Virus record (IMG/VR): IMGVR_UViG_2627853678_000004
DNA length: 15,215 nt
Strand: one strand, 5' to 3'
From: a virus
Taxonomy: Duplodnaviria > Heunggongvirae > Uroviricota > Caudoviricetes
Part shown: positions 3,014 to 15,215 of the stretch, piece after piece
Position numbering within the stretch: position 1 is the stretch's first letter
How the letters are laid out: every line of letters starts with the position of its first letter
The notes under the pieces: generated by a model
Database searches by the model: none
Told to the model about the DNA's origin: nothing
What the model saw: only the letters and a program-made list of their open reading frames with translations
Translations under genes and position numbers: made by a program

Positions 3014-3373
3014 ATGAGAATGACCAACCGCAAAAAAGAGATACTCAGCTACTTTGAGCCGGATAACCTCGAATGGGTGACAGGTGAGATTGGTGCGCCG
3101 CCGTTCGATGTATCGGGCGTGGCCTACCTGCTTCACGGCATGGTGTCGTTCGATAATCGCCACCAGCTCGAATCAACCCGGCGCACGCTGGAAAACATGG
3201 TTGCTGGTGGACTGCTTGAGCGGGTGACAGTGTATGAATCGCGCCAGATACGGCGCGGCGGTGAGACTAACGCAACGGTCGTGCGCTACGGTTTACCCGG
3301 TCAGTGCGCTGTTATGCGCGATACTGGCGGCGCTGATAACGCAATATCAGGTGAATACATGCGGGTCAGTTAA
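3014..3373 (+). CDS. hypothetical protein (119 aa)
   Basis: The only convincing plus-strand ORF in the window; non-repetitive protein-like composition (MRMTNRKKEILSYFEPDNLEWVTGEIGAPPFDVSG...). An AGGAA lies upstream, and 3020 is an alternative ATG. I do not recognise the family. Confidence 0.45.
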   Translation: MRMTNRKKEILSYFEPDNLEWVTGEIGAPPFDVSGVAYLLHGMVSFDNRHQLESTRRTLENMVAGGLLERVTVYESRQIRRGGETNATVVRYGLPGQCAVMRDTGGADNAISGEYMRVS

Positions 3374-3908
3374 TAGCCTGCAATCTGTCGTTGATGCGGC
3401 TCAGGTCGTAAACCCGGCGTTCAATATCCAGCATCAGGAAATTGTGGATCTCGGCCTGCTCAGGATTATCAGACTCTCTGGCCTGTAATAGCAATTCATT
3501 GTAACCATGCAAGCCGCCTGAGTTTTCCGCCGGGGTGGTGCCTTTCCCACGCAGGCAGCTAATGGGCTGATTGCTCGTATCGTGTGTTTGCTTCTCCAGC
3601 ACAATGACGCAATCCCACCAGTCGCCAAAGTCATACGTGTAAACCAGCTTGTCACCATCATTCTGGAGCGCTGCCCATAGTGGTGTGATTGCCGCATTAC
3701 CCATGCTTTCATCCTCACCCCATACGCGATACTCGCTACCGGGATCACCTTTACGCCCTTTCTCGAACATATACAGGTGTTCGTCATTCCAGCCAAAAGC
3801 CAACTGGATCACCGCGTGAAGTTCACTAAAGGGGATTTGCTCTGGAACCAGCACACGCCGCCATATAGGTGGTTTGCTGTCTCGGATGGTTATCTTTAGC
3901 TGGTACAT
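3366..3908 (-). CDS. pRiA4b ORF-3-like family protein
   Basis: Start placed at the internal ATG 3906-3908 (MYQLKITIRDSKPPIWRRVLVPEQIPFSELHAVIQLAFGWNDEHLYMF...), with AGGA 7 nt upstream. The YQLK...PPIWRR...GW.D.HL pattern is the recalled signature of the pRiA4b ORF-3-like domain. The six-frame ORF extends to 3956 without support. Confidence 0.6.
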   Translation of the reverse strand: MYQLKITIRDSKPPIWRRVLVPEQIPFSELHAVIQLAFGWNDEHLYMFEKGRKGDPGSEYRVWGEDESMGNAAITPLWAALQNDGDKLVYTYDFGDWWDCVIVLEKQTHDTSNQPISCLRGKGTTPAENSGGLHGYNELLLQARESDNPEQAEIHNFLMLDIERRVYDLSRINDRLQAIN

Positions 3909-3991
3909 GCAAATCCTGAATAAATGCGAATCGGAAGGATAACGATACTGACGCACTCACAATTCTGTAAAGGTGAATAAAGGTAATTTGC

Positions 3992-4213
3992 TTAATAAGC
4001 ATAAGTTACATGCGGAATAATCCCGTATCTACTGCGTGGCGCTGGCTTCTTCCACTGGTAGGCAGGCGCTCGCATCATCTCCCCGAACCGTTTGCGCCGG
4101 GCTGTATCAGCTTCAATAATGCGCTCCATTTCCCGAACCTCTGCCGGGGTAAGCTGGTGGCCTTCATGCTCCAGTTTAGCGGCTGTGATTGCGGCTATCT
4201 GCTGTGGTGTCAT
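3992..4213 (-). CDS. small hypothetical protein (73 aa)
   Basis: Internal ATG at 4211-4213 with AGGGG 8 nt upstream; product MTPQQIAAITAAKLEHEGHQLTPAEVREMERIIEADTARRKRF.... The longer ORF to 4369 adds only a low-complexity basic extension and runs across a strong hairpin. Confidence 0.35.
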   Translation of the reverse strand: MTPQQIAAITAAKLEHEGHQLTPAEVREMERIIEADTARRKRFGEMMRAPAYQWKKPAPRSRYGIIPHVTYAY

Positions 4214-4294
4214 GGTTGCCCCTGTTGCGTAGTTTTGGGCGATCAATATACTGTCCAAAACATAATTGCGCCGGGTATTAGTCTGTCCGCTCTC

Positions 4295-4321
4295 AAACGC
4301 CCTTTTGGGCGTTTTGCTTTT
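4295..4321 (+). terminator. terminator-like hairpin
   Basis: AAACGCCC-TTTT-GGGCGTTT is a perfect 8 bp stem with a 4 nt loop, followed on the plus strand by TGCTTTT. It lies in the leader of the 73-aa gene; functional strand is uncertain. Confidence 0.35.
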
Positions 4322-4482
4322 ACAGCTTCGGGCCAATATCTTTGGCAGCTTTCCCCGTCTTACGCTCAATCACGCCCGTGATATAGCTGCGCGTTCTGTT
4401 TCTCACTGGCTGGCCTCCTGCGAATTACTGCGCATTAACTGCGATCTGCGCAAAAAATGAATGAGAGATAATAAGCGTTTTT

Positions 4483-4568
4483 CTGCGTACTGCGCACCAG
4501 TGGCGCGAACCAGAATATTTTGGACTGCCTAAATCGAATATGGCTTCCAGCCCGCTACTGGCGCGGTT
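4483..4568. repeat. copy 1 of an ~86 bp conserved intergenic repeat
   Basis: CTGCGTACTGCGCACCAGTGGCGCGAACCAG...GGCTTCCAGCCCGCTACTGGCGCGGTTC aligns to 5268-5354 at roughly 85% identity, and the final 26 bp are identical. Confidence 0.8.
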
Positions 4569-4638
4569 CTCTCTTCATATGGGCTTTGAGTCTGTCCAGT
4601 ACAGTCCAGTATTTCAACATTGGTGACTATACGGATTG

Positions 4639-5016
4639 CTAACATGCGCCGCTTTTTTTAACCCTTCGCAGATCCCGCCTTGCTTGCATTGAAACGGCTC
4701 TCGCTAATCTCAGCTCAAGCCGTGCGATTCTGTCGGCATGTAGCCCCATGAGTCCGTTAATCAATGTCATCTCGCGCCATTCTTCTGTTCCCGGCGTCGG
4801 ATTATTCGCCAGTAATAGCCCGTATCTCTCAGCCAGCATGAGGTTTCTTGCACGATTTCGCACCAGCGGAGAAAGCGCCTCTCCCCCCTCAAATGGGAAG
4901 AATGCCCGCCGACTGCGTTCGCCATGTTTGACGGCATTAGTATTGCCCAATGGTGCGCCTGCGCCTTTCCGCTTGCCACCCCATCCCGATCTTGATTGTT
5001 GGCTATTTTTTTTCAT
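4639..5016 (-). CDS. small basic protein with a GxGxPxGNxNAxKHG motif, possibly terminase small subunit-like
   Basis: ORF with ATG at 5014-5016 (MKKNSQQSRSGWGGKRKGAGAPLGNTNAVKHGERSRR...). I recall the N-terminal motif from some phage small-terminase or DNA-packaging proteins. The Shine-Dalgarno is weak and the function assignment is tentative. Confidence 0.4.
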   Translation of the reverse strand: MKKNSQQSRSGWGGKRKGAGAPLGNTNAVKHGERSRRAFFPFEGGEALSPLVRNRARNLMLAERYGLLLANNPTPGTEEWREMTLINGLMGLHADRIARLELRLARAVSMQARRDLRRVKKSGAC

Positions 5017-5267
5017 TTAACGGCTCACTGTGCGCATTTTTGTGCGCAAAAACCTTAACAAACCCTAACAATACCTTAATAAAACTGTATATCTAACTTC
5101 CGCCATCTACTGCGAACTGATAGCGCCCAAGCCAGAAATATCAAGCCTCTCCACCATTTTGCGAATGCGCAATTCGCGCTTACAAATTACTGCGAATTCG
5201 CAATTTCTGTACGCAATGCCACCGTTAGCATTTGTCAGGTAGTACGCACGTTGAATACGCAGTTTTG

Positions 5268-5354
5268 CTGCGCACTGCGTACCAGTGGAACGAACCAGAT
5301 ATTTAGGACGTCCTGAATCACGATTTGGCTTCCAGCCCGCTACTGGCGCGGGTC
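5268..5354. repeat. copy 2 of the ~86 bp conserved intergenic repeat
   Basis: CTGCGCACTGCGTACCAGTGGAACGAACCAG...GGCTTCCAGCCCGCTACTGGCGCGGGTC; contains the perfect palindrome AGGACGTCCT. Direct repeat of 4483-4568. Confidence 0.8.
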
Positions 5355-5420
5355 TGGCGCTGCTAGGGTTTTAAATCCGTACTAAACAGTACTAAATTTT
5401 CCGCCGTTTGGGTGCGAAAC

Positions 5421-5732
5421 TTACTGCGAACCATCGCCCCCGCTGGTGGTATGCCGTTGCCTCTTGCCGCCATTTAACCGGAAGGCGTTACCGTTCGGTT
5501 GCGCTATCCCCATGCGGTGCTGAGTTTCGGTGACAGCTTTATGCAGGTCGCCAAAGTCCTCAACCTTCACGGGCGGGCGCTTCACGTTCTCCAGACACGT
5601 TTCACGGCGGCGCTTTATCCATTCCCGATCATCGTCCTCGGTGCATAACAGCATGACTTCCATCCATCGCGCGGCGGCGCGTCGGTACAGCCCTTTTGCT
5701 TCCAGATCCTCAGCTTTGCTGTCGTTTACCAT
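5421..5732 (-). CDS. PerC-family transcriptional regulator
   Basis: ATG at 5730-5732 preceded by GAGGGGGG; product MVNDSKAEDLEAKGLYRRAAARWMEVMLLCTEDDDREWIKRRRETCL..., matching the recalled PerC-family N-terminal pattern. It sits 11 nt downstream of the ssb stop. Confidence 0.65.
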   Translation of the reverse strand: MVNDSKAEDLEAKGLYRRAAARWMEVMLLCTEDDDREWIKRRRETCLENVKRPPVKVEDFGDLHKAVTETQHRMGIAQPNGNAFRLNGGKRQRHTTSGGDGSQ

Positions 5733-6205: not shown

Positions 6206-6307
6206 TTTGCGAATACCTCGAATTATTAGTTTTGCTAATGAAGATTGCCCGGCACCGTCTTATTGTGGGACACCTTCGCCAGATTTTTTTGTATATAACA
6301 AAAATAG

Positions 6308-6567
6308 TGTTGTCTCTGTTGTCTTTGTTGTCTCACGGCTCTACAGGCCGCGCCACGTCTGGGTTTTGCTGAGACAACATTTGCAATTTCGTGTTGTCTC
6401 ACCCGGCATAAATGTTGTCTCACTGCCTGCCGGACTAAAAACACACGTTCGCCCTGTTGTCTCAAAATGGCTAAATGTTGTCTCAATGTTGTCTCAAAAA
6501 TTAAAATAAAATCCTTATAAATCAATGTAACTTACAAAATGAGACAACAAAGACAACAGAGACAACA
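6308..6567. repeat. iteron array and AT-rich tract: putative replication origin
   Basis: Eleven copies of TGTTGTCTC or its complement, counting two one-base variants. A perfect 27 bp inverted repeat (6308-6334 against 6541-6567) brackets the region, and an AT-rich tract lies at 6496-6540. The array sits directly 3' of the primase-helicase gene. Confidence 0.6.
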
Positions 6568-6592
6568 CTAAAACTACGTATGTGAAAAAAGA

Positions 6593-9352
6593 TTATTCTT
6601 CTGGCTGGCTGCTTTCCTCATCCATGAAGTTGAGCACATAAACGCGAATTTGCCGCCCTCCTTCCCTTACCCGCCCCTGATAACCTCGCCCGCTCGTTGG
6701 TGGTGTTAGCATTCCTGCATTCTTGAGAACTTCGGCAAACTGCCTGACATTAAAACCCCGTGCGATCTCCTGCTCAAATGTTGCCGGGAAGGTGTAGAAA
6801 ATTATCGGGTCGCCGTCGTGGTTCCCCTTCTTCCTGTACCCGGCTAAATCACGGATGGGTAAATCGCGCGGGTCATAACCCAGCGGCGCGAATCTACTCA
6901 GCCCATAGGCATTTAAAAACGCCTCCGTCTGCTCGATGATCTGCTGGTGCTCTTTGTTCCCCGTGCCGAACTCTTTCAGCCATGCGTTATAGGTGTGCTG
7001 TATCGCATCCCGGCACGTTTGAGCATCCCAGCCAGTAACCACGCCACCCAGCAGTAAAGCGGCCTCCAGAATGGCGAACCTCGCCCCTACACGGTGAACC
7101 TGTTCCCCATAGTCAGCAGGGATTAGACTTCGCCATCGGGCTTCACACTCACGAACGGCATCAATCGCCTGCTGCTGGTGGTCTGAAAGCCATCTAATCC
7201 ACTCCCGCCCGGCAGCGCCATGATGGTGCTGGTAAGCGTCTTTCAGCGCGTCGGCGTGATCTTTCCCTGTCTGGTGCTCATGAAAGCGCACCGCCTTACT
7301 CAGCGGGATATTCAGCAGTCGCACCAGTTGCCCCGCTTTTGTCTTGCGTCCTGCGGTGGCGATGAACGTTTCTAAATCCATTTCCCCGGTGCTGATTGCC
7401 ACGGTGCGCCAGCGTTTCAGATCCCGGTTGCCTCCTTCCTTTGCTCCCTGCAATTTCCCCACGCCGTTAAACAGGGCATAGGCAGACTGAGAAACGCTTA
7501 TCGGGTCTGCGCCCTGTCCGACTTCATCCAGCGGCATCAGCCCGTCATTGTGGGCGGCGGCCTCGTTTATCAGCCCCAGCGCCGTCCCATACCACGTCAG
7601 GCGCAAGGCATCAGGGTTGCCGTAAAGACTGCTCGCCACGTTCTGCGTGGTTGTTTTCCCGGCGCTCGATTGCTCATAAAAATGAATCCCGAATCCGTCA
7701 CGATCTGCCACCCCGATTAATGGCGCTGCCAGTGCTGCGGCGATGCCTGTCATCATCGCGTAGTTGCCGTATGCCAGCCGCGCAACACTGTTAAGCCAGC
7801 TTTCAGGCGTTCCTGCTACGGTATACCCGGCAGCGGCTGAACTGCGCCCGCTGAACAAAACAGGCCGCTGAGGTGTGCCGATGATTTCCCCGTCCGGCAT
7901 GATGTATGCCCCACACTGCCAGCCTGTAGCATGAGCAACGCGCCACAATTCACGCGAGCCGCTTCGCTGTAACCAGTCGGCAAGAATCGCCCGTAGGCTG
8001 TTTTTCGTTGTGACGTTGACGCCACCAGCTTTCAGGGTGCGCCAGCCTTCACGCTCGCCAATATCAGCCAGCGGGATAGCCGCTGTTGTCCGTATGCCTG
8101 CACCGAATGCCAGCCATGAGATAATAAGATACTGATCTTTGTCGTCGCGTCCCGTGCCGATAACCTCCAACGGTGAACATAACCAGCTTTCAGCGTTGAT
8201 GATCTCCCCGCTTTCCTTGTCCACCTTCGGCGTTACCCAGAAAACGCCATCTTTTCGGCTCTCAATGTGGGGTTTTAGTGGGTCTTTCTCTGGATGGTCA
8301 GTTTTACCGCCCTCAATGGCCTGCAATCGTGGTTTAACGGCTTCCCCTTGAATCTGGTACATCGAGTCGTTAAACGCAGCCGTAGCGACTTCCAGCCCGT
8401 TTTGCTGGTGGTGGTCGTTCCAGTCGGCTTTGTAGTCTGTCGGCGGCAGTGCCACCCATCCAGCCACGGACAAGGCGGCTTTCTCTGCGGCCTCCCTGCC
8501 TGTATTGGCTTCTCCGTTTTGGTGGTGGTCGTTGTCTGCGGCGATGATTATTTGTGCCTGTGGATACTTCCGGCGCATCACTTCGGCAACGGGTAGCAGG
8601 TTGCCCGCGTCAATTGCTGCCACTGCCAGCGCGTCCGGGCGCATCAGGTGAACTGAAAGGGCCGTCGCCAGCCCCTCGGCAATTAAAACGCTCTGCGGCG
8701 ATTCTGGCGCGTTTACGGCGTGATATGCCCCGCGCTTTGCCGAACCCGTCAGAAGTCGCTTTTCTCCATGCGGTGTAATGGTCTGCGCTGCTGCCACTGC
8801 GCCGGATTCATCCACCAGCTCCAGCAATAACGAACCATCTGGCATTAGCGGGTAATTAAACCCGGTCAGCCCTTTTGATTGCAGGTACTCAGCTTCGCCC
8901 TGTATGGCTCTCTGGCGCATTCCGGCATACAGACGGGAAAACGTAGCCCGGCGCTGCTCTGCGTCCTCTGCGGCCTTTTTCTGTCGCTCCTGCTCATGCC
9001 GCTGGCGGTCTGCGGCTAACTGCGTCTGTCTCTGGCTGGCAGCGTCTGGTGCTGGTTCTGCGGCCCGGTAATCAATACCCAGCACATCAGCGGCAAGGTG
9101 CGCCGCCTCCGTGGTGTCGCAGTTGTTAACCCGTTTGATTAAATCCAGCCCATCGCCCGCGCCGCACTGATTGCAGATAAAGCTACCTCGCCCGTTGTCG
9201 TCGAATCTGAAACGGTCTTTCCCACCACATGCAGGGCAGGGGGCATGACGGCGCGATGAATCAGGAACGTCGATAGACAGGCCAGCCAGCACATAAGGCC
9301 ATTTACCAGCGGCGGCGCTGGTCACTTCGCGGATAATGTCGATATTACGCAT
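6593..9352 (-). CDS. primase-helicase (zinc-ribbon, TOPRIM and P-loop domains), P4 alpha-like replication protein
   Basis: 919 aa. N-terminal CPACGG...FICNQCG zinc ribbon; TOPRIM-like segment (AEGLATA...IIAADNDHH...GEANTGREAAEKAA); C-terminal P-loop region (SSAGKTT Walker A-like, MPLDEVGQ Walker B-like). GGGAGG Shine-Dalgarno before the ATG at 9350-9352. Confidence 0.85.
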   Translation of the reverse strand: MRNIDIIREVTSAAAGKWPYVLAGLSIDVPDSSRRHAPCPACGGKDRFRFDDNGRGSFICNQCGAGDGLDLIKRVNNCDTTEAAHLAADVLGIDYRAAEPAPDAASQRQTQLAADRQRHEQERQKKAAEDAEQRRATFSRLYAGMRQRAIQGEAEYLQSKGLTGFNYPLMPDGSLLLELVDESGAVAAAQTITPHGEKRLLTGSAKRGAYHAVNAPESPQSVLIAEGLATALSVHLMRPDALAVAAIDAGNLLPVAEVMRRKYPQAQIIIAADNDHHQNGEANTGREAAEKAALSVAGWVALPPTDYKADWNDHHQQNGLEVATAAFNDSMYQIQGEAVKPRLQAIEGGKTDHPEKDPLKPHIESRKDGVFWVTPKVDKESGEIINAESWLCSPLEVIGTGRDDKDQYLIISWLAFGAGIRTTAAIPLADIGEREGWRTLKAGGVNVTTKNSLRAILADWLQRSGSRELWRVAHATGWQCGAYIMPDGEIIGTPQRPVLFSGRSSAAAGYTVAGTPESWLNSVARLAYGNYAMMTGIAAALAAPLIGVADRDGFGIHFYEQSSAGKTTTQNVASSLYGNPDALRLTWYGTALGLINEAAAHNDGLMPLDEVGQGADPISVSQSAYALFNGVGKLQGAKEGGNRDLKRWRTVAISTGEMDLETFIATAGRKTKAGQLVRLLNIPLSKAVRFHEHQTGKDHADALKDAYQHHHGAAGREWIRWLSDHQQQAIDAVRECEARWRSLIPADYGEQVHRVGARFAILEAALLLGGVVTGWDAQTCRDAIQHTYNAWLKEFGTGNKEHQQIIEQTEAFLNAYGLSRFAPLGYDPRDLPIRDLAGYRKKGNHDGDPIIFYTFPATFEQEIARGFNVRQFAEVLKNAGMLTPPTSGRGYQGRVREGGRQIRVYVLNFMDEESSQPEE

Positions 9353-10252: not shown

Positions 10253-10428
10253 GCTGCCACCTCACGAATGCGGGTAATCTGGATGTGGGAAAGGCGTTCA
10301 TTTCTGGCCTGATTTAGCGCCTCAGCTTTGGCGCTGATCGCGCTGCGGGCGTCAACGATATAAACGAACTCGACTAATTCGCCGCTCCGGGCGGTGGCGC
10401 ATCCTGCAACACGGAAGTAATTAAGCAT
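10249..10428 (-). CDS. hypothetical small protein (59 aa)
   Basis: ATG at 10426-10428 with AGGGGG 6 nt upstream (MLNYFRVAGCATARSGELVEFVYIVDARS...). It overlaps the upstream stop by 8 nt. The six-frame ORF start at 10458 lacks a Shine-Dalgarno. Confidence 0.45.
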   Translation of the reverse strand: MLNYFRVAGCATARSGELVEFVYIVDARSAISAKAEALNQARNERLSHIQITRIREVAA

Positions 10429-10612
10429 GTGCGCCCCCTGTGCGAATACGTCCGGCAAAAAAGCAAACGTGATCCCGCGCCAGAATGCGGCGGGCTTCCT
10501 GCTCAGTTTCTGCGGCGATATGGTGAATTTTGGCGGTAATTGTCGGCATGTCGCGGCGAACGGCTGCGATTAACCAGATAAATTGTGGATTTTGGGTAGG
10601 GGTAGTAGCCAT
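10421..10612 (-). CDS. small protein (63 aa), possibly Icd-like
   Basis: ATG at 10610-10612 with GAGG upstream (MATTPTQNPQFIWLIAAVRRDMPTITAKIHHIAAETEQEARRILARDHVCFFAGRIRTGGAHA). Resemblance to Icd-like small proteins of P4-type islands is from memory only. Confidence 0.4.
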   Translation of the reverse strand: MATTPTQNPQFIWLIAAVRRDMPTITAKIHHIAAETEQEARRILARDHVCFFAGRIRTGGAHA

Positions 10613-10781
10613 GATGGCAGCCTCTATACAGTGAATTTTGAATTCACCACCAAGAGACGCCAATCTCAGACTGGTGGTGAGCTGAACAAGGTTGGCGTAA
10701 CCGGCCTGTATAGACACCGGCCTTCCTTTCGGAAGCCTCATCCAGCCCACCATAATTTGGGTGCGCAGGAATTTTGCCGAC

Positions 10782-10804
10782 AAAAAAACACGCTTAGTGC
10801 GTGT
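10782..10804 (-). terminator. putative intrinsic terminator or attenuator in the leader
   Basis: On the minus-strand RNA, ACACGC-loop-GCGUGU (6 bp stem, 5 nt loop) is followed by UUUUUUU. It lies inside the long non-coding-looking region upstream of the small-ORF/primase operon. Confidence 0.35.
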
Positions 10805-11132
10805 CGGCACTATACAGGTTATCGGGACGCCAATCCCGGCACCTGATTTTGCAGGTGCGCTATAACCATAAACCGGGTTGGCGATAGTCGGCAAGCCCTT
10901 TTTTATGGACTCGCAAAACTCACCTTCGCGCGTGCGCGTACTGGTCGCAAAACTCGAAAAAAACTTAGGATTTATTAGGATTCGCAGCCCAATTCTCAGC
11001 CCAGAAAACGCCTCTAAAATGTCGTCATTTGTCGCAACGGCGCGGCGATGAATGTCAGGTTTTGACAGGTTGTAAGGGTTAACATTTGTTAACAGGCTAG
11101 CCAGATTAAAGGCTTCTTTCTGGGCGGCAGGT

Positions 11133-11315
11133 TCATTCAGTATCACGGCGCACCTCCACGAACTCCTTAACGAATCTCTCCAAAGGCTGAACACATGGCG
11201 ACTGATAGCCCTCGCGGTAAAAGGTCACTCGGTTATGCTCGACGCGCTGTACGGTCACTACAGCCCCGTGCGAATCCTTGTAACGGCTTCCCGGCATCGG
11301 ATTATGGTTACGCAT
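11133..11315 (-). CDS. hypothetical small protein (60 aa)
   Basis: ATG at 11313-11315 with GGAGG upstream (MRNHNPMPGSRYKDSHGAVVTVQRVEHNRVTFYREGY...). Overlaps the antirepressor stop by 8 nt. Confidence 0.5.
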   Translation of the reverse strand: MRNHNPMPGSRYKDSHGAVVTVQRVEHNRVTFYREGYQSPCVQPLERFVKEFVEVRRDTE

Positions 11316-12152: not shown

Positions 12153-12587
12153 TTAGGCGGCGGTGAGATTGTCCGGGTATAGATTGAGAATGTCGGCAAT
12201 TTCAGGCTGAGAAAGTCCCTGATAGCCCCCAGCGTCGGCGTTATGGTTCACAAGCCGAATAACTTTTAGAACGTCACCGCGCCCGGTAAAGCGATAGCGT
12301 AAATGTGACCCGATCCCGTCGGGATTCTTTTCGTCGATACGCTCTAACTGAATATCAAGCCTGCGTTCTAACTCGCTGGCGTAGTTCCTTCCAGACGAAA
12401 GGCGGCAGTAGCGCAGAATGTCGTTTTCTGTCCATCCCTCTACCCCAGTGCGTAGCATATAGACGCGGGCGCGGTGCTTCTTCGGTGTGCGGCGTGGCGC
12501 TTGTGTGGTGGGCGCTGGTGGCGTAACATCAGATCCGCGAATATCTATGTTAGCCGCCTGCTGTCCGGGGCGGTTTTCTTTTTTCAT
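12153..12587 (-). CDS. hypothetical protein (144 aa)
   Basis: Its ATG (12585-12587) overlaps the AlpA stop as ATGA. Basic, Pro-rich N-terminus followed by a globular region. Family not recognised. Confidence 0.55.
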   Translation of the reverse strand: MKKENRPGQQAANIDIRGSDVTPPAPTTQAPRRTPKKHRARVYMLRTGVEGWTENDILRYCRLSSGRNYASELERRLDIQLERIDEKNPDGIGSHLRYRFTGRGDVLKVIRLVNHNADAGGYQGLSQPEIADILNLYPDNLTAA

Positions 12588-12805
12588 CAGGCCACCTTCC
12601 CGCGACGCTCTGCCAGCCAGTTGTTAATCTCTACCGCATCAAAGGCGGTAATCTTCTCGCCCAGCTTTACCGGGCGCGGCAGAACCCCATTGCGAACTTT
12701 GCGATCAATGGTGGAAACGCTAACGCCCAGCAATTCAGCAAGGCGGAAGCGTCGGATATAGCCAGATTGGGGGATTGTGTGGGTTGTTGCGTTATGTGTT
12801 GCCAT
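12587..12805 (-). CDS. alpA: AlpA-family transcriptional regulator / excisionase-like protein
   Basis: 72 aa with the helix-turn-helix pattern RLAELLGVSVSTIDRKVRNGVLPRPVKLGEKITAFDAVEINNWL, characteristic of AlpA-family proteins found next to P4-type integrases. Confidence 0.8.
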   Translation of the reverse strand: MATHNATTHTIPQSGYIRRFRLAELLGVSVSTIDRKVRNGVLPRPVKLGEKITAFDAVEINNWLAERRGKVA

Positions 12806-13840: not shown

Positions 13841-13955
13841 CGCGTCACCTTTCACGCTGTGCCTTAAAGAGTGATTGAGCCAGGCGGTAAGGCTTCCCGC
13901 TTTTCGCCCCGTCGGGCTAGGCTCAATCTGTCCTCTGATTCTTTACATATCTTGG

Positions 13956-15215
13956 TTACTTCGCCTTTCTCAGCGGTGTAACGTTGTACTCTTCGCCGCG
14001 CTCCAGTGCCACCAGCAATCCCGCCCACTGTGTTAACGCGGCCCGGCGTTCATCAAAGTATTGGTGGCGGTTATAGATACCCTCCACGCCTTTAATTTTG
14101 TGGTTAAGGCATCTTTCTGCGACTACAGGATCAACGCCCAGCGCGGCTAAATGGGTGCGGGCCGTGCGCCGGAAGTCGTGAATAGTGAAATTCGGCACGT
14201 CCGGCATTTCAGCGCGAACCTTCGCCAGCGCAACGGGCAGGGTGCTTTCCTGAATATGGGGGATCATGCGGTTTTGCATCTTTCTGGCTGGCAGTACCCA
14301 TGCGCTGTTGCATGAGAACGTTTTAAGCTCTCTCAGCCATTCGACTGCTGGCGGTGCTAATGGAATGTCTATAGCGTCGCCGTTTTTGCTGCGTTCCTCT
14401 GGCAAGCGCCATACGGCTTTATCAAGATCGAACTCCTCCCAGCGGGCGGCGCATAACTCCATTTTGCGGACGCATAACGCTAACAGTAATTTGAACGTGA
14501 TTTCATTCTGGCGACTGAAACCCTTAGCCGTGCGCATGGCTTTGAATAGCTGGATTAACTCATCGCGTGTTAGCCAGCGGTCGCGGCTAACCTCCTTCCC
14601 TCCAGCGTCTGCCACCTCAAAGGCTGAACAGGGGTTAATCTCCAGCGCGTGCCGTTTGATTCCGTAGTCGAATATGCGGCGCGTCCATCTCAGCACGTCC
14701 GTTGCTATGGTCGGCGCTCCACGGTCAACAATACCTTTCAGCATGTCGTCGATATGGCGCGGCTTCACGTCCTCTACCTTCATGCTGCCAATGCAGGGGT
14801 TTATATCTTTGTCGATACGGCGGCGGAGTATATCGGGGTGCTTCCAGCGGGGCAGTATCTGACGTTCAAAGTATTCAGCGGCAAGCTCTGAAACGCGCAT
14901 GGCGTTTTTTTCTGCTTCCATCTTCGCCAGTGCTTCGGATTTCCGCTCCTGCTTCTCCCCGGCAACGTCATAACCCAGCGCAACACGCGCCGAAAGCTCC
15001 TTTGCTGTCTCTCTGGCCTTTGATAGTGATAGCTCGCTATACGAACCAATTAGCATTGCGCGGGACTTCCCTGCGAGTTTATAGCGGAATCTCCATGTGG
15101 GGGTTTTGTCGGCTTCACGGTAACGCAGGTATAAGCCGTTCCCGTCCGCCCGTCCCTCGAATCGCTCTCCGGCCTTTATCCACGCGCGGATCTGCATGTC
15201 TGTGAGTTTTGGCAT
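13956..15215 (-). CDS. int: tyrosine recombinase / integrase, P4 family
   Basis: 419 aa; N-terminus MPKLTDMQIRAWIKAGERFEGRADGNGLYLRYR is typical of P4-type integrases. C-terminal catalytic region has HDFRRTARTHL and GIYNRHQYFDERR. The start codon is at the last base of the window. Confidence 0.9.
   Translation of the reverse strand: MPKLTDMQIRAWIKAGERFEGRADGNGLYLRYREADKTPTWRFRYKLAGKSRAMLIGSYSELSLSKARETAKELSARVALGYDVAGEKQERKSEALAKMEAEKNAMRVSELAAEYFERQILPRWKHPDILRRRIDKDINPCIGSMKVEDVKPRHIDDMLKGIVDRGAPTIATDVLRWTRRIFDYGIKRHALEINPCSAFEVADAGGKEVSRDRWLTRDELIQLFKAMRTAKGFSRQNEITFKLLLALCVRKMELCAARWEEFDLDKAVWRLPEERSKNGDAIDIPLAPPAVEWLRELKTFSCNSAWVLPARKMQNRMIPHIQESTLPVALAKVRAEMPDVPNFTIHDFRRTARTHLAALGVDPVVAERCLNHKIKGVEGIYNRHQYFDERRAALTQWAGLLVALERGEEYNVTPLRKAK

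Follow-up and report, generated by a model that had tools for sequence, protein, structure and literature searches.

A basic protein with a small-terminase peptide as a candidate packaging factor of Enterobacterales satellite islands

What does a small basic protein bearing a peptide of phage small terminases (TerS) do on an element that carries no other morphogenesis genes? The question is posed by a 125-residue protein, here called the target, encoded in a stretch of 15,215 nucleotides, the whole of which we refer to as the window. A preliminary description of this DNA had read the element as a satellite and the protein as resembling a small terminase or DNA-packaging protein, and had suggested that the satellite redirects the packaging of a helper phage.

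The window region is present in 51 of 5426 complete E. coli genomes, in 29 of them at an identity of at least 99%. It corresponds to an island of ~13 kb between yicC and dinD of E. coli, and its presence and absence among E. coli genomes suggest that the island is mobile. A search for att direct repeats of at least 16 nt found none in the island. The gene order begins with the integrase, the int-alpA RNA, AlpA, an AntA/B antirepressor, DUF4222, the Ash ORF, the primase-helicase and the iterons, and ends with SSB, PerC, the target, orfX, a PRiA4_ORF3 protein and a second dinD-like gene. The following features define the backbone.

13956..15215, minus strand: tyrosine integrase, at the island end beside yicC
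13861-13927, minus strand: int-alpA RNA motif (RF02996, 64.9 bits), between the integrase and the next gene
12587..12805, minus strand: AlpA-family regulator
10421-11194, minus strand: Ash-family ORF of 257 aa, with a Pfam Ash match over part of it
6593..9352, minus strand: primase-helicase of 919 aa, with zinc ribbon, Toprim and DUF927
6287..6590: replication origin (ori) next to the primase-helicase gene, on its downstream side, with some dozen TGTTGTCTC iterons (6300-6570) and an inverted repeat of 31 nt whose arms match perfectly (6305-6335 and 6540-6570)
3992..4213, minus strand: orfX, 73 aa, with a C-terminal APAYQWKKPxPR

Every sizeable ORF of the window was compared with Pfam and PHROGs, and ten ORFs also with NCBIfam; no capsid, portal, tail, lysis or large-terminase (TerL) gene was found in the window. 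By gene content the element is a PICI-type satellite, with an integrase at its end, AlpA, a primase with an adjacent ori, no structural or lysis genes and a size of ~13 kb, an architecture described for PICIs of Gram-negative bacteria (PMC6092414). The preliminary description is borne out on these points: the replication module that it named is present (TOPRIM/DUF927 primase-helicase, SSB and iterons), the capsid, tail and large-terminase genes are absent from the Pfam, PHROG and NCBIfam matches of the window ORFs, and the whole has the architecture of a satellite. Packaging and interference genes of PICIs sit in the post-ori region (PMC6092414; PMC6739421), and the post-ori region of this island is where the target is located. 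Known packaging sites were sought in the island: the best match to lambda cosN has one mismatch, lies inside the primase gene and is at chance level, and no P2/P4-type cos was found. Rfam gives no match over 3900-5500.

The small gene orfX has homologues 0.2-4 kb from the target, on either side, in many related islands, and it matches no family. Reading orfX from a TTG start would give 125 aa (3992-4369), but a hairpin at 4295-4314 would then fall inside the gene, and this version is probably too long.

Several further loci accompany this backbone. Rfam detects isrK (75.8 bits), a C4 antisense RNA (72.4) and a1/b1 targets (48.4), all above the gathering score; the isrK/C4 motifs, at 10670-10871 on the minus strand, overlap the Ash-matching part of the 257-aa ORF, and the AntA/B antirepressor gene lies upstream of this region, which is predicted to be a P1/P7 immI-like antisense RNA switch on a PICI. 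Two dinD (Bro-N) genes stand in tandem on the minus strand (880-1716 and 2055-2879), their DNA ~73% identical over 300 nt, and PADLOC assigns the copy on the island side (2055-2879) to its defence candidate PDC-S13 (3e-126). The gene for the PRiA4_ORF3-family protein (3366-3956, minus strand, E 3e-42) is convergent, with an 8-nt overlap, with a family-less 119-aa ORF on the plus strand (3014-3373); this pair is possibly island cargo.

The target gene lies between perC and orfX.

4639..5016, minus strand: target gene, ATG start, 125 aa, of an unnamed family restricted to Enterobacterales

The protein begins MKKNSQQSRSGWGGKRKGAGAPLGNTNAVKHGERSRRAFFPF... and is strongly basic, with a pI of 11.6 and 25 K+R against 10 D+E. 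Among 5.8 billion proteins searched, 108 are homologous to the target at E<=1e-3, every one of them labelled hypothetical and essentially all from Enterobacterales, with hosts that include Escherichia, Klebsiella, Salmonella, Serratia, Dickeya and Pectobacterium. The ORF is a genuine conserved gene, because these 108 homologues share its start (MKK..QQSRSGWGG) and residues 7-40 are almost invariant in the family alignments. The middle of the protein is helical and moderately conserved (RNLxLAE...WRExxL..G..WQHT), and the C-terminal third varies in sequence and length. A Pfam search, one of the checks that the preliminary description had proposed, assigns the target to no family, and no regulator family is matched either; PADLOC is equally silent, and none of the 108 homologues contains a Pfam domain. 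PDB chains gave no match to the single sequence or to the family profile at E<=10. When the gene and its flanks were searched against 50,697 phage records (tblastn, blastn), no enterobacterial phage matched, and a plasmid search with the target returned just two marginal matches. Judged by these searches, the family is confined to chromosomal islands and is not seen in sequenced phages.

The most conserved part of the protein is its N-terminal arm, which contains the motif.

4897..4998, minus strand: near-invariant N-terminal arm, aa 7-40, QSRSGWGGKRxGAGAPxGNTNAVKHGERSRRAFF, predicted disordered
4921-4965, minus strand: TerS-type motif GAGAPLGNTNAVKHG, aa 18-32 of the target

Residues 18-32 (G-A-G-A-P-L-G-N-T-N-A-V-K-H-G) fit GxGxPxGNxNAxKHG exactly, just as had been reported for the 125-aa protein. 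To see what other proteins carry this peptide, we draw on an unbiased search of the target-family HMM against 1.84 billion representative proteins: among its 253 matches, ~30 are true members and the rest align at positions ~5-45 only. NF040601 (TerS_not_xtmA) is matched by 68 of 98 motif-bearing proteins (best 3.5e-15); the PHROG matches that recur among the 98 are five TerS families, and no other functional class recurs. Annotated phage genes that match the motif are essentially all TerS. The target itself scores 18.9 bits against NF040601 (E=1e-3), for which the curated cut-off is 120 bits, with the match limited to its residues 9-33 (profile positions 75-100 of 233), and PHROG 1889 is matched in the motif region only (E=7e-3).

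Searches of the phage records with the target give motif-level matches to Streptococcus-phage TerS genes and to a few unannotated ones. Streptococcus phage Javan247 encodes a 227-aa protein with a helix-turn-helix (HTH), two motif copies and a helical region, immediately upstream of TerL. Aligning the target family with the TerS family of Javan247 by hhalign gives a probability of 95.2% (E 2.6e-8) over target residues 6-62 and TerS residues 34-110. The aligned part of the TerS begins where the HTH ends, takes in the motif and an FxP segment, and reaches the first long helix. Proteins with the motif also occupy the TerS position elsewhere. In two Vibrio-type prophage contigs (L027, L024) proteins of 303-305 aa with HTH, motif and long helices precede TerL and portal. 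In two further phage contigs, HTH-less proteins of 108-109 aa overlap the TerL start (L025, 3339-3668; L026, 4769-5095); they begin ..NGWGGKREGAGAPTGNTN.., the GWGGKRxGAGAPxGNTN peptide, and at the N-terminus they share 57% identity with the target over residues 3-30. These 108-109-aa proteins match no PHROG family and look like an undescribed minimal type of small terminase.

The N-terminal arm of the target is, on this profile evidence, homologous to a TerS signature module. The homology spans ~55 residues, mostly the glycine-rich peptide, and ends at about residue 62. An HTH is absent from the target, in which just 17 residues precede the motif, as against an HTH at residues 3-38 in real members; a beta-hairpin and a detectable TerL-binding region are missing as well, and TerL is absent from the window and from every fetched island locus. 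Taken whole, the target belongs to no TerS family, because it lacks the HTH, scores below the cut-off and has no TerL neighbour. The resemblance to small terminases seen at the outset thus divides: the motif is a genuine TerS signature (68 of 98 motif-bearers match NF040601, and the hhalign probability is 95.2%), but identification of the complete protein as a small terminase fails on the missing HTH, the 18.9 against 120 bits, the end of homology near residue 62 and the lack of an adjoining TerL. Among the sequenced phages searched, no enterobacterial phage was found with the motif in its TerS, and the target therefore does not mimic a known helper TerS. A Klebsiella phage TerS, reached via the HTH of the Vibrio-type TerS, was rejected as a relative, as it lacks the motif. 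A literature search on the motif, PF10668, COG5484 or DUF2280 returned nothing relevant.

Structure prediction reveals a similar division.

4645..4869, minus strand: predicted antiparallel helical hairpin, H50-71 and H77-124, pLDDT >90

In the AlphaFold model of the target, residues 1-30 are disordered and are followed by helices H31-38, H50-71 and H77-124. The model of a motif-bearing TerS has a disordered motif region (residues 50-78), followed by H99-121, a beta-hairpin and H148-177. The motif is thus predicted to be disordered in the target and in real TerS, and long helices come next in both; the hhalign alignment with TerS reaches only into the first helix of the target. Fold searches with the target model return just generic coiled-coil or hairpin matches. 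Structure prediction, also proposed in the preliminary description, therefore supports the comparison in the order of disordered motif and helices, but yields no HTH and only a generic hairpin.

A second connection with packaging comes from the neighbours of the target in related islands. A gene for a DUF2280 protein (PF10045, phrog_546) lies 75-750 nt from the target in 19 fetched loci. It is downstream of the target at 75-750 nt in L007, L008, L010-L016, L018, L019, L023 and L062, is reduced to a 40-aa remnant in L009, and stands immediately upstream of the target in L021 and the Salmonella loci L036-L039. In phages, DUF2280 is present in 324 records and is found at the TerS position: Pectobacterium phage ZF40 has the order gp40 (DUF2280), TerL gp41 and portal gp42, and Burkholderia phage vB_E192a has, upstream of TerL and portal, a DUF2280 gene with the annotation TerS. 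Since DUF2280 holds the TerS position of phages, part of the island family encodes its own terS, like certain other PICIs, with the target adjoining. Target and DUF2280 TerS are not themselves homologous (hhalign probability 0.1%), and their relation is one of adjacency only.

The same gene order as in ZF40 is seen in a lambdoid prophage of E. coli O145:H28 RM12581 (L042, 4381-8597), with a metallopeptidase, DUF2280, TerL and portal; DUF2280 is annotated there only as a domain of unknown function, yet it stands in the TerS position. DUF2280-bearing prophages of this kind are candidate helpers for the island family.

The Salmonella enterica elements (L036-L039, L021) have a PICI-like left half with integrase, DUF4222 and DUF927 primase. 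In these elements (at ~9400-20300 in L036), that half passes through DUF2280 and the target homologue straight into E217/Pam3-like genes for cement protein, major capsid, neck, sheath, tube, tape-measure and baseplate, with no TerL, portal or scaffold gene in between. A satellite may here sit inside a prophage of the myovirus type or be joined to one.

The island of the window lacks the DUF2280 gene, and no remnant of it was found in the window at E<=5. When the window is aligned with L007 and L012, homology extends from the target through a short repeat to the DUF2280 start codon of the relatives.

4590..4613: CTGGAC-N4-CTGGAC repeat, just past the target stop, the last stretch shared before the DUF2280 start of the relatives

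After this break the window has a second copy of a box plus hexamer array (described below), and homology resumes at orfX and its 3' flank. The terS of the island in the window has been replaced, because the box-plus-array copy stands where L007 and L012 carry DUF2280. In species-dereplicated genomes DUF2280 is adjacent to the target in only 1 of 25 loci, so that islands without terS are common; islands with terS are probably over-represented among the IMG/VR loci, an enrichment that may arise from how viral contigs are called. In complete E. coli genomes, matches to a query of target plus DUF2280 cover one part or the other, never both. The adjacency in relatives strengthens a packaging role for the target.

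The DNA upstream of the target gene carries a dense array of related hexamers, together with a box that recurs downstream.

5262..5355: duplicated box, copy 1, ~95 nt, preceded by the perC stop and followed by the array
5017..5300: upstream hexamer array, 12 copies of TGCGCA/TGCGAA/TTCGCA/TACGCA/TGCGTA
5191-5202: palindrome TGCGAATTCGCA, within the upstream array
5031-5048: TGCGCA-N6-TGCGCA pair, beside or overlapping the ribosome-binding region of the target
4400..4570: second partial box (4477-4570) plus array, 5 hexamers at 4419-4496

The 12 hexamers compare with a mean of 0.8 per 284-nt window, and 12 is reached in 2 of 747 sliding windows. In 14 of 20 related loci the cluster in which the hexamers are densest, taken over the whole locus, begins no further than 575 nt upstream of the target, and in 11-13 of 15 loci the 600 nt before the gene are enriched 20-60-fold in the 8-mers TGCGAATT, GGTACGCA and TGCGCAAT. 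Some related islands also carry runs of GGTACGCA direct repeats and GTTTCCA inverted repeats, and L007 and L009 have paired palindromes ~34 nt apart. The two ~95-nt boxes are 785 nt apart and 88-94% identical; each is followed by TGCGNA hexamers and then by a gene, the target in one case and orfX in the other. An RNA-structure reading of the box was rejected, with z-scores of -2.0 and -0.9 and discordant folds.

Across related islands the backbone order of primase, ori, arrays and target is always kept. Islands of Dickeya and Pectobacterium, and some of Serratia, keep the array by the ori and have cargo genes between array and target, the arrays being 2-4 kb from the target gene in Dickeya and Pectobacterium; in Dickeya and L020 the arrays come directly after the ori iterons. 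The Salmonella elements contain the target gene and no hexamer arrays, and none were found near genuine phage terS genes. The ori iterons vary between islands (TGTTGTCTC in the window, GAACCGAC in Dickeya and L020). A conserved hexamer core and arm combined with differing iterons fits recognition of the hexamers by the arm, as far as conservation patterns can suggest it.

We tentatively propose, at a confidence just short of even, that the target is a satellite-specific packaging-specificity or hijack factor of a PICI-type island. The disordered, glycine-rich basic arm, the same peptide that one TerS class carries beside or instead of its HTH, would contact DNA, and the TGCGCA/TTCGCA/TACGCA array next to the gene would be its most likely target. 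The helical hairpin would serve in self-association or in docking onto terminase subunits, so that the protein would mark island DNA for the terminase of the helper. Where an island has its own DUF2280 TerS, the protein may work together with it; in terS-less islands such as that of the window, it may work with the DUF2280-type TerS/TerL of the helper, as Rpp does. We infer the DNA binding, the binding site, the partners and any packaging effect; the analysis itself established the gene and its family, showed the homology of the motif and a predicted architecture, and linked the gene to DUF2280 and the arrays in the setting of a satellite.

Counting in favour of the packaging role are the motif homology, the position of motif proteins upstream of TerL, the HTH-less proteins of L025 and L026, the shared disorder, the DUF2280 linkage, the hexamer array upstream and the post-ori location. 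Against it count the shortness of the TerS homology, the missing HTH, beta-hairpin and TerL-binding region, the lack of an enterobacterial phage TerS with the motif, the adjacency of DUF2280 in 1 of 25 dereplicated loci, the arrays that lie 2-4 kb away in Dickeya and Pectobacterium, and the array-less Salmonella elements.

The arrays can also be read as operators. With two copies, each before a gene, a promoter/operator function fits at least as well as a pac site, and the target could be a DNA-binding regulator (an autoregulator or late-gene switch) with no direct packaging role, its terminase-derived basic arm and dimerising coiled coil binding hexamer or palindrome operators before target and orfX. 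The TGCGAATTCGCA palindrome and the paired palindromes of L007 and L009 resemble dimer operators, the TGCGCA pair overlaps the ribosome-binding region of the target, box and array are duplicated before both genes, and real phage terS regions are devoid of such arrays. We nevertheless consider a regulator rather unlikely, given that no regulator family of Pfam, PHROG or NCBIfam matches the target, that the motif is elsewhere essentially confined to proteins in the TerS position and that the target repeatedly adjoins a TerS gene.

This last association is shared by a reading in which the target only interferes with the helper, as a Ppi-like protein that binds the TerS or TerL of the helper and blocks its packaging, without being needed to package the island. 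Its truncated, HTH-less TerS-like architecture, the restriction of the family to satellites, with none found in sequenced phages, and its place beside the island terS in relatives, as for Ppi-type genes in SaPI packaging operons (PMC6092414), would suit such a protein, but the candidate helpers have a TerS of the DUF2280 type, to which the target shows no homology, PADLOC gives no match for the target, and a near-invariant basic arm with linked arrays suggests DNA contact over pure protein mimicry; we regard pure interference as improbable. Slightly more improbable still is an unrelated role tied to the repeats near the origin, such as control of replication or copy number, or segregation of the excised island. 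The arrays that directly follow the ori iterons in Dickeya and L020 and the constant order of primase, ori, arrays and target point in this direction; however, the iterons differ (TGTTGTCTC against GAACCGAC), unlike the conserved hexamer core and protein arm, and the TerS motif and the adjacency to terS would be left unexplained.

A role in packaging specificity invites comparison with known systems. The closest sequence relation is to TerS of the YjcR, NF040601 and PHROG 509-1889-370 type and to the HTH-less proteins in the TerS position, which have the (G)WGGKRxGAGAPxGNxNAxKHG peptide in common with the target. YjcR/NF040601-type TerS are likewise small basic proteins, and in the models of both the peptide is disordered and is followed by the FxP segment and a long helix. 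In contrast to them, the target is without an N-terminal HTH, a beta-hairpin and a C-terminal segment, does not lie beside TerL, scores 18.9 against 120 bits and occurs in islands only.

The Rpp proteins (RppA/B/C) of E. coli PICIs such as EcCICFT073 are 144-153 aa long, combine a winged HTH with a coiled-coil helix for dimerisation and have structures in the PDB; rppA is found in the post-ori region (PMC6739421). Like them, the target is small, lies post-ori in a Gram-negative PICI without terS or capsid genes, and has a long C-terminal helix in its model; the retargeting of a helper terminase to island DNA is a further likeness that we propose for the target. Whereas the winged HTH of Rpp mimics lambda Nu1, the target has a disordered glycine-rich arm, its island contains no lambda-type cosN, and the candidate helpers are phages with DUF2280 TerS rather than lambda or phi80. 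Identity with Rpp was rejected, as the target matches no PDB entry, including the deposited RppC, and has no winged HTH. With the SaPI-type TerS and Ppi the target would share a place in satellite packaging specificity within a post-ori operon, and relatives of the window's island carry their own TerS homologue (DUF2280) beside the target; the island of the window, in contrast, has lost terS, and the target is not a full TerS.

EcCIMP1 is a functional PICI said to be without an identifiable packaging module ('Type C', PMC11773190). It has the same backbone of integrase, AlpA, antirepressor, Ash, primase and PerC as the island of the window, and no recognisable terminase or capsid. It differs in its integration site (proA-yagU instead of yicC-dinD), and the packaging candidates proposed for it are other proteins (PMC11773190).

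The recurrence of the peptide raises a further, more doubtful possibility. GWGGKRxGAGAPxGNxNAxKHG may be an autonomous module for DNA recognition or terminase docking that small terminases of many lineages fused to different cores, and the island protein would then be a minimal HTH-less adaptor that alone retargets a DUF2280-type terminase to the arrays. If so, PICIs would redirect packaging by a third, undescribed route besides those of satellite TerS and Rpp, and this would explain the packaging of abundant PICIs that have no recognisable packaging module.

Redirection of helper packaging by satellites is already known from the SaPI TerS with Ppi and from Rpp; what is new here is an uncharacterised protein family that would redirect packaging differently. 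Our analysis also draws attention to a highly conserved peptide of several TerS families that is structurally and functionally undescribed. Many Gram-negative PICIs, including the experimentally mobile EcCIMP1, have no recognisable packaging module. The target family, widespread in Enterobacterales islands and combining a terminase peptide, linkage to a TerS gene in relatives and a conserved DNA array, offers a concrete candidate for the packaging module that this common class of Gram-negative PICIs is missing.
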